A stretch of 20,874 nucleotides of DNA from Nitrosarchaeum sp. (GCA_023265135.1 JAHFUM010000004.1:92422-113295); one strand, 5' to 3'; shown: positions 1 to 20,630, numbered from the stretch's first letter. A program made the numbers and translations. The notes: generated by a model from the letters alone, not told the origin.

Positions 1-125
1 AATAATATAATAAAAAATATGATATTCTATTCATAAATAATATAATAAAAAATATGATATTCTATTCATAAATAATATAATAAAAAATATGATATTCTAT
101 TCATAAATAATATAATAAAAATAAA
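1..125. repeat. 35-bp tandem repeat (unit aataatataataaaaaatatgatattctattcata), 3 identical copies plus a partial 4th; may continue beyond the left window edge
   Basis: Identical units at 1-35, 36-70 and 71-105. A partial unit from 106 diverges after about 17 nt. Confidence 0.9.
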
Positions 126-343
126 ATTAAAAACGACCGTTTTTTCTAAATATTGAAATCAAAAATGACAAAATTGCATCTTTTTGATGCTTTTTGGGTG
201 TCTAATCAAAAACATGCCTGAAAAATCATTAAAACCACAGTTTTTGGCTTGAAATTATGTAAATAAATCAATTTTTGAATAAAAATATGCCCGTTTTATT
301 TTATTATAAAATAAAACTAAGATATTATTTATAAAATTTATTT

Positions 344-1243
344 TTATTTAGATATTTTTTTATTATTTATGAATAAATCATATGTTTTATATTTTTTAAA
401 TTCTTCATATTTTATTTCAAGACTATGATCAATTAATGGGGGTTTAGGGCGAAATAATGTAGTATGAAATTGCATCTCAAGTGAGTCCTGTTTGTCGCCT
501 TTTTTTATGTATATTCCATCATTAAATGACTCTTTTGCTCCAAAGATAGACTTGTCTTCTAACCAATCCATCATTACCATCGTGTTTATTTTATTTTCAG
601 TTCTATTTAGATTGGCTAGTTTATGTTCATAGTGTTTATCTAAATTTAAGATATATTTTACCAAAGTGGGAGAATAATACATCATTGTTATTAATTCATC
701 ATCATTTAGTCTTTCAAGAAGAATAATCCTAAAATGTATAAATTTTATATATTTTTTATATTTCTTTTTTCTATATTCATCATAAGCTAATTTGAGTGAA
801 TCTGAGATAGTTTTTTTATTAAAAAATGATAAAATATAGTTTGTCCTGTACCATAATTGTGTAGGATCGTATTTAGCATCAGATTGATTGGTTCCATAAT
901 CTTTGTGTAATTTTGTTTGTAGTTTTTTTATATTTGAAAATAATTTATTTGAAATTTGCTCGATATTTTCAAATTCAGAAATTAAATTAACAATTGTTTT
1001 TACAGCATGAATATTCTTACTCCATTTATAACGACTTTCTATGCCTAGATGTACTTTTTTGTCTAGAATTTTATGATCATAAAGATATGTCAGATGTTTT
1101 TGGATGTTTCTTCTTTCGGATAATCCAAAATTCTTTTTTAAAAATTCTCTAATATCACTAGCAGATTTTCCAGTATCTCTTAGGTAAAGCAAGATTACAA
1201 TTTTTACAAAATCTTTGGGATATTTTTCACCTCTTTTTAGCAT
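344..1243 (-). CDS. Hypothetical protein, possible N-terminal winged-helix DNA-binding domain
   Basis: 299-aa ORF. The N-terminal roughly 75 aa (KIVILLYLRDTGKSASDIREFLKKNFGLSERRNIQKHLTYLYDHKILDKK) looks like wHTH. It is divergent from the small-protein/pPolB operon, the same arrangement as 16364-17206 in element B. Confidence 0.5.
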   Translation of the reverse strand: MLKRGEKYPKDFVKIVILLYLRDTGKSASDIREFLKKNFGLSERRNIQKHLTYLYDHKILDKKVHLGIESRYKWSKNIHAVKTIVNLISEFENIEQISNKLFSNIKKLQTKLHKDYGTNQSDAKYDPTQLWYRTNYILSFFNKKTISDSLKLAYDEYRKKKYKKYIKFIHFRIILLERLNDDELITMMYYSPTLVKYILNLDKHYEHKLANLNRTENKINTMVMMDWLEDKSIFGAKESFNDGIYIKKGDKQDSLEMQFHTTLFRPKPPLIDHSLEIKYEEFKKYKTYDLFINNKKISK

Positions 1244-1383
1244 TTCTTTGATGTTTTTACTAGAGTATCATATTTAAAGAGGCAGAATCTAAATGACAAT
1301 TTATACCTAAAATAGTGCTTTAAGGTGGGTATTATAACTAAAAATCAAATACATCAAGAAGATGTTTTCTAGTATATTCTTTG

Positions 1384-1761
1384 ATGAAAAAGACAGATGC
1401 ATTACACAAAGAAATAGAGACAATCAAAAAAGAAATAGAATCACTTGAGACCTTTCGTCCTACTTTTCAAACAAAGAAATTTCTAAGACAGTTAATTGGC
1501 GAACGAATGAACATAGAAAATCAAATTAGAAAAATATTTTCTAGACAAAAATCAAAAGAAGAAGAAAAACAGAGTAGACGAACAGAAGCAAACAAGAAAC
1601 GCAGTCAAAAGATGAAACGTGTGTGGAATTATTTTAGAGCAATTCAAAAAAACTATTTGCCACACATGTCAGCCAAAGAACTTCGCTCTCAATTTTCCAA
1701 ATTCAAAAAAGGATTAGAAACGGATGTATCTGAAATAATTTGGAGGAATCCTAGTCCATGA
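1384..1761 (+). CDS. Small lysine/arginine-rich coiled-coil protein coupled to pPolB; homolog of 17866-18204
   Basis: The ORF track starts at TTG 1381, with ATG at 1384. The stop overlaps the pPolB start (ATGA at 1758-1761). The C-terminal block KMKRVWNYFRAIQKNY...ELRSQFSKFKK...IIWRNPSP aligns with KMRRYHNYIRQIRNNF...QIRSQLSRRKK...VIWQNPSP in element B. Confidence 0.7.
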   Translation: MKKTDALHKEIETIKKEIESLETFRPTFQTKKFLRQLIGERMNIENQIRKIFSRQKSKEEEKQSRRTEANKKRSQKMKRVWNYFRAIQKNYLPHMSAKELRSQFSKFKKGLETDVSEIIWRNPSP

Positions 1762-3632
1762 CTTTGCAGATTCATACTCCAAAATCAAAGGCAAAAGATC
1801 TGACATTTATCAAAACTAGAAGACAAAACAGAAACGAAAATAGTTCAAATCGCAGAAAAGTAGTAGGAGTTGACACTGAAACTGCAAATGGAGATATATT
1901 TCTATTAGAAGATTCTGATGGTAAGTTCATAGAATATCCAAACATATCATTTGATAGTGTTGCAGAGTTTCTTTTCAGACATGAAGGGAATTGGATGTTT
2001 TGTTATAATTTACAGTATGATGCTGAAGTGATTTTAAAATTATTACCATCAAAAGTTTTTGATCCTTATAGAAAAATAAAGAAATTAGAGTTTCAATACA
2101 AGAATTATTCAATATCATATATTCCAAAAAAACAACTTAAAATTCAAAAAGGAAATCACAGTGTATCTCTATATGATATTGCTCAGTATTGTGACAACAA
2201 ACCGCTAAGTGTCGCATATACAGAATATATCAAAAAGCCACTCGATGAACAATATCTCAAAATCAAAGAAGATAGAAAAAGTTTCAGTCTCAGGCACTAT
2301 TTTAGGCACAAAAAACAGGTTAGACAGTACTGTCTGACTGATTGTGTGTTGACTAGAGAACTGGCTGAAAATTGGCTAGATGCATTTTTTGAAGCGTTTT
2401 CATTTTATCCTGCAAACTGGATTAGTTCGGGGTATTTGGCAGAAAAGGTTCTAGTTCATAATAAAATTCCAATTCCATTTTTTGTAGATGTTCCATATGA
2501 TATTCAAAAATTAGCATGGGAGTCATTTTACGGAGGTCGATTTGAATTAATTCAGCGTGGATACATTGGAGAATGTTATTTGTATGATATTAATTCTGCA
2601 TATCCATATGCATTGACATTTCTTCCAGACATTACAAATGGAAAATGGTTTGCATCAAAAAAGATAAATCCAAAATCATCATTAGGATTCTTTCATATCC
2701 GTGCACAAATTGATTATTCTGTAAAGATTGCACCATTTCCTTTTAGAACAAAAAATAATAGAATAATTTACCCAGTGGGAGAATTTGAAACTTTTGTCAC
2801 ATTAGAAGAACTAAAGGCAGTAACGGGTGATCCTAAAATAAGATATAAAATAATTGACTCGTATCAGTTTATTGCAAATCCAGACTGTACATATCCATTT
2901 AGAGAATTTCTTTCAGAGCAATATGATAAAAGAATGAAACTAAAAGAAGAGAAAAATCCACTAGAGCGAGCAATCAAAATTGTATTAAATTCAATGTATG
3001 GTAAAACTGCACAACGCGTTAACAATCAAATGGGAAATTTGTATAATCCAATTATTGCATCATTTATCACAGGATTTGCAAGAGCACAATTATACAAATT
3101 TGTCAAAGATCATAAATTAGAAAATGATGTTGTTGCCTTTGCAACTGATTCTATAGCGTGCAGAAAAAAGATTCTTGGGTTGGATAGCAAAAAACTAGGG
3201 GAGATGAAACTAGATAAATCTGCTAATGATGTGTATTTTTTATCAAACGGATTTTATAGATTTAATGACACTTGGAAGAATCGTGGAATTGGCTATGATT
3301 CAGAGAAAAAAGTCGAAATTGAGCATCAAGATACCAAAATAAGTAAAGACGGACAATTGTACATTTCAGTAAAAACCACCAAAACCATCCATCTCAAAAG
3401 TGGAATAATCTACAACAAACTCGACAAAATAGGAGTAATTGAGGAATATGAGAAGAAAATTAACCTAAATTCAGATAGGAAACGGTTCTGGTATTCTGAA
3501 TTAAAGTCACTAAAAGAAGAGACATTTTGTGATTCGTCAGCAATTCCAATTGATATGGTTGGAGATATTATTTCAGAGAAGGAAATTGAATGGAGTGATA
3601 ATGAGGATTATTATCCTGAAAGTGATCTTTAA
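1758..3632 (+). CDS. polB: Protein-primed family B DNA polymerase (pPolB), element A
   Basis: Exo I VGVDTET, Exo II YNLQYDAE, Exo III YCLTD, motif A LYDINSAYPYAL, motif B KIVLNSMYGKTAQ, motif C VAFATDS. No long N-terminal extension precedes Exo I. Confidence 0.9.
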   Translation: MTLQIHTPKSKAKDLTFIKTRRQNRNENSSNRRKVVGVDTETANGDIFLLEDSDGKFIEYPNISFDSVAEFLFRHEGNWMFCYNLQYDAEVILKLLPSKVFDPYRKIKKLEFQYKNYSISYIPKKQLKIQKGNHSVSLYDIAQYCDNKPLSVAYTEYIKKPLDEQYLKIKEDRKSFSLRHYFRHKKQVRQYCLTDCVLTRELAENWLDAFFEAFSFYPANWISSGYLAEKVLVHNKIPIPFFVDVPYDIQKLAWESFYGGRFELIQRGYIGECYLYDINSAYPYALTFLPDITNGKWFASKKINPKSSLGFFHIRAQIDYSVKIAPFPFRTKNNRIIYPVGEFETFVTLEELKAVTGDPKIRYKIIDSYQFIANPDCTYPFREFLSEQYDKRMKLKEEKNPLERAIKIVLNSMYGKTAQRVNNQMGNLYNPIIASFITGFARAQLYKFVKDHKLENDVVAFATDSIACRKKILGLDSKKLGEMKLDKSANDVYFLSNGFYRFNDTWKNRGIGYDSEKKVEIEHQDTKISKDGQLYISVKTTKTIHLKSGIIYNKLDKIGVIEEYEKKINLNSDRKRFWYSELKSLKEETFCDSSAIPIDMVGDIISEKEIEWSDNEDYYPESDL

Positions 3633-19961: not shown

Positions 19962-20128
19962 TACTTGTCAAAGTTTTGATAATTTGATAATTGTTAATTT
20001 GATACTGATTTAGAGTAACAAAATGATATGCATGACAAAATCAAAAATCATTGTATGCTTGATAATCGTGCCTGTCAAGACAAGATTTTCATGCTTGACA
20101 AATGATTGACAACCATCATTTTGCCATT

Positions 20129-20245
20129 GTCAGACAATGACAAATTAGTGACAGACAATGACAAATTAGTGACAGACAATGACAAATTAGTGACAGACAA
20201 TGACAAATTAGTGACAGACAATGACAAATTAGTGACAGACAATGA
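20129..20245. repeat. 21-bp tandem repeat x about 5.6 (unit gacagacaatgacaaattagt) inside a wider TGACA(A/G)/TTGTCA motif field
   Basis: Units start at 20129 (1 mismatch), 20150, 20171, 20192 and 20213, with a partial unit at 20234-20245. Confidence 0.95.
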
Positions 20246-20536
20246 TTTGACATGTCTGAATTGTTGTCAGGCTTGTCATGGTACTAATTAGTCATTATCA
20301 CAAATTTGTTTAGGTTTGTCATGACAAGTATTAGACCAGTTCTTTTAACATTTCATAATATTGTCTGTTTATGATCTTTTTCTTATAGAGTTTCTTTTTT
20401 AGTTCACAGATGTTATCCCTCTTTTCCAAGTCCATAAAATAATACAGGTTAGAAAAACAAGGATTTAATGGTGTAATGGTTTTTCTGACCCATCAACGTC
20501 ATAATGAAAATCATTACTTACATTATGATCTTAAAG

Positions 20537-20615
20537 AATTTCCAACAAATCATACTGTTCGTTATGTCGTAGTAAGTGTCCTAAAATCATGCGTAAGAGG
20601 GGGGATTTCCCTTTT
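20537..20615. repeat. Right terminal inverted repeat of element B
   Basis: Exact reverse complement of 10511-10589. Confidence 0.95.
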
Positions 20616-20630
20616 TATTCTCTGTCAATA
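20612..20630. repeat. aEF-2-proximal copy of the target-site duplication (tttttattctctgtcaata)
   Basis: Identical to 10492-10510. Contains the aEF-2 stop codon (20615-20617) and the last four sense codons. Confidence 0.9.

Follow-up and report, generated by a model that had tools for sequence, protein, structure and literature searches.

How do two cas1 genes and two genes for protein-primed family B DNA polymerases (pPolB) come to lie together at the 3' end of the gene for archaeal elongation factor 2 (aEF-2), and are they part of a CRISPR-Cas system or of casposons, the self-synthesising transposons that use a Cas1 homolog? The question is raised by a stretch of 20,874 nt from Nitrosarchaeum sp. 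(GCA_023265135.1, JAHFUM010000004.1:92422-113295), hereafter the window, whose positions 1-20630 the initial annotation, made from the sequence alone, had read as two stacked casposons. Our analysis indicates that the window very probably holds two distinct family 1 casposons in a tandem array behind aEF-2 of a Nitrosopumilaceae genome. In the direction away from aEF-2, the order is element B, which is complete, one copy of a target site duplication of 13 bp (TSD), and element A. Both elements are present, but only B is whole within 1-20630; the distal element A extends past the left window edge. Related loci and contigs are designated below by numbers with the prefix L.

Both Cas1 homologs and both polymerases were found where the initial annotation had placed them. 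The casposase of element A is encoded at 8857-9966 on the minus strand (PF01867, E=2e-52; TIGR00287, E=1.8e-45), its true start being probably the TTG at 9945, which gives a protein of 362 aa; that of element B lies at 11059-12132 on the plus strand (PF01867, E=7e-52), so that both profile matches are of the order of E~1e-52. The pPolB genes are both on the plus strand, at 1758-3632 in A (PF03175, DNA_pol_B_2, E=2.5e-24; phrog_11768, E=1e-60) and at 18183-19961 in B (PF03175, DNA_pol_B_2, E=2e-20). The identities between the elements, estimated by eye as about two-thirds for Cas1 and about half for PolB, were measured as 66% and 50%, respectively. Besides cas1 and polB, the sole gene common to A and B is a small open reading frame (ORF) upstream of polB and overlapping its start, with 37% identity and a common C-terminal W-x-NPSP; the other ORFs of the window form separate clusters for A and B, and the cargo indeed differs. 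The host aEF-2 3' end occupies 20615-20874 on the minus strand and runs off the window (EFG_C, E=1.9e-9). According to the ORF list and the Pfam scan, its ORF at 20615-20851(-) terminates in ...EYIDRE and a stop, and the C-terminus is 96-97% identical to the EF-2 C-termini of L008 and L028.

The extent of the elements was defined by their terminal inverted repeats (TIRs). A repeat search returned an inverted repeat of 100 nt (10496-10595 and 20531-20630), and the 16-mer TTATTCTCTGTCAATA is present in exactly two copies, at 10495 and 20615; since, in addition, the observed match number was reached in 0 of 100 shuffles, these boundaries are not explained by chance. The first 25 nt of the TIR likewise have exactly two occurrences, inverted relative to each other. 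Sequences located 3' of the aEF-2 stop codon were gathered from related genomes and used to build a hidden Markov model (HMM) and a position weight matrix (PWM; 30 nt, 26 TIRs), and a conserved terminus, T|AAAAA[T/G][A/G]G.A..CCCCC.., was common to all these elements. HMM and PWM together located exactly three termini in the window, at 10496(-), 10510(+) and 20616(-). The first belongs to the aEF-2-side TIR of element A (10446-10496, minus; HMM E=1.1e-9, PWM 34 bits), which differs from the TIRs of element B. The left TIR of B (10510-10589, plus; HMM E=2.9e-10) is over its 80 nt perfectly complementary to the right one (20537-20616, terminus 20616, minus), the latter being recognised by the HMM and by this complementarity. 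Element B therefore extends over 10510-20616 (10,107 bp) and has a TIR at both ends, perfect over 80 nt, whereas A shows the aEF-2-side TIR only.

Exactly 13 nt, 10497-10509, separate the back-to-back termini of A and B. This TSD copy, common to both elements, reads ATTCTCTGTCAAT and is an exact repeat of 20617-20629, the copy inside aEF-2, which is made up of the final four codons together with the stop codon's T; duplicated target is visible on both flanks of B and on one flank only of A. On the aEF-2 strand the TSD reads ATTGACAGAGAAT and is homologous to ATTGATAAAGAGT, the 13-bp TSD determined biochemically for the casposase of N. koreensis AR1 (PMC8464041), with A1, T3, A11 and T13 in common. 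Beside the target, the flanking sequences are ..GAATAT on the side of the aEF-2 leader and ..CTATTTTT at the TIR end. The first two As of B's right TIR complete the TAA stop codon of aEF-2, and host aEF-2 stays intact because the leading A-run of the TIR rebuilds this codon. Insertion is hence site-specific, at the aEF-2 3' end, and leaves the gene undisrupted. Element boundaries, the lack of which had been named as an argument against mobility, are marked by clear TIRs and a TSD.

Assignment to family 1 is supported by both core proteins. A protein search with Cas1 B gave 873 relatives at E<=1e-60. Among them is P0130 (347 aa), annotated as Cas1 in Ca. N. koreensis AR1. This biochemically characterised enzyme (PMC8464041) is 67% identical to Cas1 of B and 60% to that of A. 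Among PDB structures, Cas1 B matched 6OPM, the casposase of M. mazei, best (E=8e-27), with CRISPR Cas1 structures ranking below; the scores of Cas1 B were 522 bits with the AR1 casposase, 98 bits with the family 2 casposase and 86 bits with the highest-scoring CRISPR Cas1 structure. In Cas1 of A and B, the catalytic residues E169, H241 and D253/E256 (B numbering) are invariant and align with those of 6OPM; the profile and catalytic-residue check proposed with the initial annotation was therefore passed by both proteins. At 357 aa (B) and 362-369 aa (A), compared to 347 aa in AR1, they have no further Pfam domain, such as a helix-turn-helix (HTH) or Zn-binding one. By sequence similarity, both can be placed among the family 1 (thaumarchaeal) casposases.

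The two polymerases have retained their Exo I/II and Pol A/B/C motifs, represented in PolB A by DTE, YDAE, DINSAYP, KIVLNSMYGK and TDS, and are 51-59% identical to PolB of the AR1 casposon NitAR1-C1 (59% for B); a PDB sequence search with PolB gave no match. A kinship with His1/His2-like PolB was reported for family 1 (PMC4046053), and His1 and His2 are the nearest viral relatives here (27% identity for B). Family 1 elements have three small conserved genes directly upstream of polB, one of them proposed to encode the terminal protein (PMC4046053). In element B these are present at 17240-18204 on the plus strand (89, 109 and 115 aa, the last being the candidate terminal protein), with 46%, 41% and 47% identity, the latter for the candidate terminal protein, to the corresponding three genes of NitAR1-C1, and B carries the full set of five family 1 core genes. 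Element A has one such gene, at 1381-1761 on the plus strand, for a small basic protein which, as the counterpart of the 115-aa one, is the candidate terminal protein, its position matching that of the proposed family 1 gene. Judged in this manner, element B would agree with family 1 in every sequence criterion, and element A in all of them bar the single small gene and the inverted PolB module. The family 1 assignment and the aEF-2 target given in the initial annotation were thereby supported.

Could the cas1 genes instead be what remains of a decayed CRISPR-Cas adaptation module, or the region a pPolB provirus of the His1-like or spindle-virus-like kind? NCBIfam does label both proteins as CRISPR-associated Cas1, and the viral relatives of PolB have just been mentioned. 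However, in agreement with the earlier reading, neither cas2 nor any other cas gene was detected among the ORFs of the window by Pfam, NCBIfam and PADLOC scans, the Rfam scan of the window had no match, CRISPR-DR included, and Tandem Repeats Finder (TRF) revealed no spaced repeats in the window, the sole arrays being head-to-tail without spacers. A linked CRISPR locus just outside was likewise sought: no cas2 or CRISPR array occurs in the extra 2.8 kb of the matching contig L002. The arrangement expected of CRISPR-Cas adaptation, cas1 beside cas2 together with a repeat-spacer array, is absent from the window. The gap between 522 bits to the AR1 casposase and 86 bits to the best CRISPR Cas1 structure, the TIRs and 13-bp TSD at a site-specific target, the lack of capsid or packaging genes in PHROG scans and the identity of only 27% between PolB and viral polymerases all speak against these explanations, which we consider hardly credible. 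It should be added that CRISPR-Cas adaptation does resemble casposon integration in its homologous integrase chemistry and in a leader-proximal, ruler-measured staggered attack that duplicates a short repeat; it differs from the window in having Cas2, an interference module and 30-bp spacers, as opposed to no Cas2 and a self-replicating element of at least 10 kb.

By analogy with the studied family 1 casposons, the array may have arisen as follows. At ATTGACAGAGAAT, the casposase would link the 3' ends of the TIRs to both strands of the target at points 13 bp apart, and gap repair would then duplicate the target, recreating the site at each insertion. Because every insertion regenerates the target, a second insertion would be possible, and a later casposon could enter either TSD copy. 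An excised copy would be replicated by the element's own PolB in a protein-primed manner, the small upstream protein presumably acting as the primer.

Whether A and B really adjoin in the genome depends on the assembly. Two strain variants could have been joined through the TSD and the similar TIR starts, making the array, or the orientation of B, an artefact; the sequence is metagenomic, from the source sample ERZ27279942 / SRR14366796, the Logan assembly has A and B on separate contigs that break at repeats, and with B TIRs identical over 80 nt short k-mers cannot fix the orientation of B. Set against this, the Logan A contig (L003, from another run) passes from A through its TIR and the TSD into 27 nt of B-specific TIR, the ENA MEGAHIT contig L002, assembled with k=141, spans the whole A/B junction, the proteins of A and B are recorded together on one 113-kb NCBI contig, and the same junction architecture is seen in the closed AR1 genome and at five other loci. 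An assembly artefact thus appears very unlikely, with the reservation that the orientation of B rests on assembly across 80-nt identical TIRs. As assembled, B has its PolB end toward aEF-2, opposite to NitAR1-C1 and to A, due either to insertion that way round or to a later inversion between the TIRs.

A tandem array may result from duplication or from repeated insertion. Cas1 of A has relatives that are 83% (L008) and 80% (L040) identical, and Cas1 of B is 91% identical to that of L015, 92% to P0016 and 86% to copies at other targets (L045, L047). As the closest relatives of each element lie elsewhere and not in its neighbour, the two represent separate insertions rather than a duplication, which upholds the independent use of the same site put forward initially. 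The close Cas1 B relatives at other sites (86-87%) hint indirectly at mobility. The distal TSD copy is preceded by TTTTT of the TIR, resembling the TTT leader which the AR1 enzyme needs, and the aEF-2 copy by TAT. With regard to leader-proximal insertion, L015 was compared with L028 of the same metagenome-assembled genome (MAG); being only 80% identical, the two are not alleles.

The remaining question concerns the far end of element A; its length amounts to 10.5 kb or more in the window and 13.3 kb or more on the matching contig, on neither of which that end is reached. TIR-like stretches at 117-185, 281-343 and L002 1146-1176 were tried as its left end and dropped, because none scored above chance with HMM or PWM; L040 then showed the region to be internal. 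Locus L040, found via a homolog of the 299-aa protein of A, is an intact A-type casposon (21-15100) with TIR termini at both ends and aEF-2-type TSDs. It contains, in order, Cas1 (80% identical to that of A), cargo, PolB and the small gene on the opposite strand, the 299-aa homolog and a 34/35-bp repeat, followed by a further 4 kb of cargo between the tandem repeat and the distal TIR. The corresponding 35-bp tandem repeat of the window (1-121, x3.5 by TRF; unit with the palindrome TATGA-N8-TCATA) is accordingly internal to A, which continues to the left, since L040 holds the same repeats and the 299-aa gene internally. Left of the window, L002 has genes for a 531-aa metallopeptidase-like and a 342-aa protein, the former probably and the latter perhaps A cargo. 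Both were also considered as host genes marking the empty-site flank, and for the 531-aa one this was disfavoured given that the protein has just 11 homologs, some of them in other mobile elements.

According to a different explanation, only B is functional and A is a one-ended, immobilised fossil devoid of distal TIR and TSD. The absence of a fourth TIR terminus from the window and from 2.8 kb beyond would fit, the best PWM score left of the window being 0.5 bits against a 95th-percentile null of 7.5; so would the decayed remnants and solo TIRs that are very common at this site (L018, L019, L022-L030, AR1) and the A-type relative L008, which has lost its proximal TIR. On the other side, the core ORFs of A are all full length with catalytic and polymerase motifs intact, in L040 the distal TIR and the 35-bp repeats are ~4 kb apart, a distance that the available contig does not cover, and the flanking 531-aa gene is sporadic and mobile-element-associated, as expected of cargo. 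We therefore regard the fossil as unlikely, yet as a possibility of some weight, and retain two family 1 casposons as the reading. With respect to L008 (9800-10004; Nitrosarchaeum MAG JAIOOR010000021.1), an A-type casposon without aEF-2-side TIR, its EF-2 ORF reads through, the last 12 residues being swapped for ~65 unrelated ones; this is due either to a deletion fusing the host gene to casposon DNA or to an assembly error.

Several observations weigh against two mobile casposons and have to be set beside the above. Of the three small genes described as universal for family 1, two are missing from element A; the A-type relatives L008, L009 and L040 likewise carry just the small gene overlapping polB. 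A search of the window and of the additional 2.8 kb to its left on L002 returned neither the distal TIR of A nor a third TSD copy, and the completeness of A is presumed by analogy with L040. All mechanistic steps are transferred from homologs (the AR1 enzyme, 60-67% identical; PMC8464041, PMC4046053). The data revealed no empty site, no excision product and no free form, and no empty or singly occupied allele of the host was retrieved. Finally, the order in which A and B were inserted is not readable from the sequence.

Considering the remaining genes, element B starts with a 141-aa protein upstream of cas1 (10622-11047, plus; ORF list, weak PepSY match only). A cargo block, which includes a 249-aa protein, follows at 12152-15907 (Pfam, PADLOC, NCBIfam). 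It comprises a PIN protein (13215-13778; Pfam PIN, E=5e-8), a ParB-like protein (13771-14601; ParB_N, E=6e-10; TIGR00180 parB, E=4.5e-24) and an SspD-like PAPS reductase (15134-15907, minus; PAPS_reduct, E=1e-11; PADLOC SspD, E=5.8e-34). The last adjoins the ParB-like and 179-aa proteins (13771-15137(+)), and SspA, SspB and SspC are lacking. From its sequences, this SspD-like/ParB-like pairing would resemble IbrA/IbrB and not a complete phosphorothioation system; Pfam, PADLOC and NCBIfam scans of the B cargo returned no complete known defence system. A 280-aa protein (16364-17206, minus) is divergent from the operon of small genes and PolB, has no family match and has a 49% identical homolog at the same position in L009. 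Between polB of B and the right TIR, a non-coding stretch of 350 nt (19962-20330) is packed with TGACAA/TTGTCA and holds a 21-bp tandem repeat (20131-20245, x5.5; TRF, 100% match). In appearance it is iteron-like or centromere-like, and a ParB-like protein is among those encoded by B. An equivalent of this stretch is lacking in NitAR1-C1, and tandem repeats as a general trait of family 1 were rejected, being absent from NitAR1-C1 and most other loci.

In element A, Cas1 and PolB are convergent, a layout common to L008, L009, L033 and L040. The 299-aa protein (344-1243, minus) is function-unassigned, with no match in Pfam, PHROG or PADLOC scans, and is conserved beside the module of terminal protein and PolB in A-type elements; its homologs are 76% and 56% identical, the 56% one occupying the same position in L040. 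The 35-bp repeat (window 41-123) is 90% identical to that of L040 (about 10919/10926-11064), compared with a DNA identity of only 69-81% for the genes next to it; this suggests that the repeat is conserved as a site acting in cis, and the 299-aa protein encoded beside it may be what binds there. Its copy number is 3.5 in the window and one fewer in the otherwise identical ENA contig. The cargo at 3657-7728 (plus; Pfam, PADLOC) consists of a 612-aa protein with DUF4062 and a STAND/NACHT-like NTPase (Pfam DUF4062, E=1.2e-14, plus AAA/NACHT matches) and its 752-aa partner. The pair looks like a split version of the 1,621-aa PADLOC candidate PDC-M54A, because each protein matches a different part of it (1.4e-11 and 3e-5), and may be taken as a candidate defence pair. 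It is also located beside PolB in L009 (13329-17362; 47-48% identity), and hence in two A-type casposons. Further features are a 363-aa protein (7755-8846, minus) with no family match in Pfam/PADLOC scans and, between TIR and cas1, a 157-aa hydrophobic protein (9942-10415, minus; ORF list), at whose position AR1 and L040 also have a small ORF.

How unusual is such an array? In this point the initial annotation, which took a tandem of two diverged elements at one target as unusual, has to be revised: the arrangement is already published, for family 1 (PMC6563490) as well as family 2 (PMC4779613), and is common rather than unusual. Back-to-back TIR termini exactly 13 nt apart were observed at six further loci, L007, L012, L019, L024 (twice), L040 and AR1, making seven with the window. 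A family 1 precedent is NitNF5-C1 and NitNF5-C2 in Ca. Nitrosopumilus adriaticus NF5, a pair of unrelated casposons that lie in tandem in ef-2, one of them inverted (Krupovic 2019, PMC6563490). Their cas1 genes are at the outer ends of the array, whereas those of the window face apart across the inner junction, and their cargo consists of OLD, NERD and HNH nucleases, XerC and two Cas4, in contrast to the STAND NTPase pair, SspD-like, ParB-like and PIN proteins here. In Methanosarcina, family 2 casposons form tandem arrays, solo TIRs and remnants in both orientations at one site (PMC4779613); as in the window, a reused, regenerated target leads to arrays with a single TSD between elements. They differ by an RNA-primed-type PolB, a C-terminal HTH on Cas1, a 14-bp TSD and tRNA-Leu or intergenic targets. 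NitEve-C1 of Nitrososphaera evergladensis SR1 (family 1; PMC6563490) has, like A, Cas1 and pPolB convergent on opposite strands, and unlike A an intergenic target, HEPN and ATPase-pentapeptide cargo and a distant host; the comparison with A concerns the layout.

Closest in sequence are NitAR1-C1 and NitSJ-C1 (Ca. Nitrosopumilus koreensis AR1 and Nitrosopumilus sp. SJ), whose target, the last 13 nt of aEF-2, reads ATTGATAAAGAGT versus ATTGACAGAGAAT here. NitAR1-C1 (L044) has in common with the window elements a TIR start of AAAAATAGAA..CCCCC, the 13-bp TSD, on both sides in NitAR1-C1, and a compact casposase without HTH. It resembles B in its three small genes upstream of polB and in co-directional Cas1 and PolB, and it differs from A, where these two are convergent and one of the three small genes is present. 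Other cargo, an orientation opposite to that of B and a TTT leader in place of TAT set it apart from the window. In AR1 (L044 17548-17630; CP003842.1 ~663490-663570), a further TIR start, AAAAAGGCAGTCCCCCCTCCTTACG..., directly follows the distal TSD of NitAR1-C1, resembles the TIR of NitNF5-C1 and is followed by neither Cas1 nor PolB; it has the appearance of a solo TIR. Were this so, casposon DNA would be the source both of AAAAA at the end of the published 21-22-bp 'TSD' and of the 'spacer' side in the in vitro target.

At every locus inspected, including the closed N. koreensis AR1 reference genome, a TIR immediately follows aEF-2, and several loci exhibit successions of complete elements, N-terminal stumps of Cas1 and solo TIRs with exact 13-bp TSDs between them. 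Series of short remnants, beside aEF-2 or in succession, occur in L024 (1-5000), L019 and L022-L030, each remnant with a TIR and the first 30-140 cas1 codons; in L024, three remnants stand in a row with exact 13-bp TSDs between. It is conceivable, though we put it forward tentatively and with more doubt than conviction, that the aEF-2 3' end of Nitrosopumilales is a standing 'casposon array' and not an occasionally occupied site. The decayed unit is the distal one in AR1 and L015, which would fit new insertions at the aEF-2 (leader) side, like spacers in CRISPR arrays. Among full-length elements, those with Cas1 beside aEF-2 and inverted ones stand at ~9:2, a Cas1-based search missing inverted remnants; NitNF5-C1 is also inverted, and we make no claim of an orientation bias.

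Variations of the target were seen as well. In L019 (7265-7277), the 13-mer between back-to-back TIRs, GTCGACAGCGAGT, is inverted with respect to the aEF-2 copy (a near reverse complement), and its sequence points to an inversion involving the TSD. TIRs in L012 (16434-16480 and 1800-1850), L047 (9300-9330) and L045 (14598-14627) are flanked by 30-45-nt look-alikes of the aEF-2 3' end (...NEFIDKE and a stop) with no EF-2 gene; either these are moved or duplicated target copies, or a short pseudo-target may suffice for insertion. The TSD of L012 is now a near-palindrome, ATCGATAATCGAT. A second target, ACTGACAATCTCT / ACAGATAATCTCT, preceded by ..TTTACAAAACAGATT, was found in L007 (150-162 and 11130-11142), L014 (99-111) and L017 (2766-2778), relatives with Cas1 63-64% identical to that of B. 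A scan of viral contigs with B's TIR gave no match, and a metagenome scan with an A-type PolB alignment gave one short locus.

With the window, the catalogue of family 1 casposons gains two new members, whose closest Cas1 relatives in the database are 83% (A) and 92% (B) identical. In B, the perfect 80-nt TIRs and exact TSD suggest recent activity. In natural arrays, the spacing of 13 nt between back-to-back TIRs agrees, as independent evidence, with the 13-bp TSD that the AR1 enzyme gave in vitro, and the cargo of STAND NTPase pair, SspD-like, ParB-like and PIN proteins adds to the evidence that casposons carry defence-type genes. The inverted orientation of B and the convergent Cas1 and PolB of A likewise have published precedents, and since repeated use of a self-regenerating aEF-2 target is already in the literature, the finding extends rather than changes the known biology. 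Should the standing array at aEF-2 prove true, the window would represent an early stage of it with two intact, diverged elements, and would offer a natural test bed for the reuse of TSD copies.

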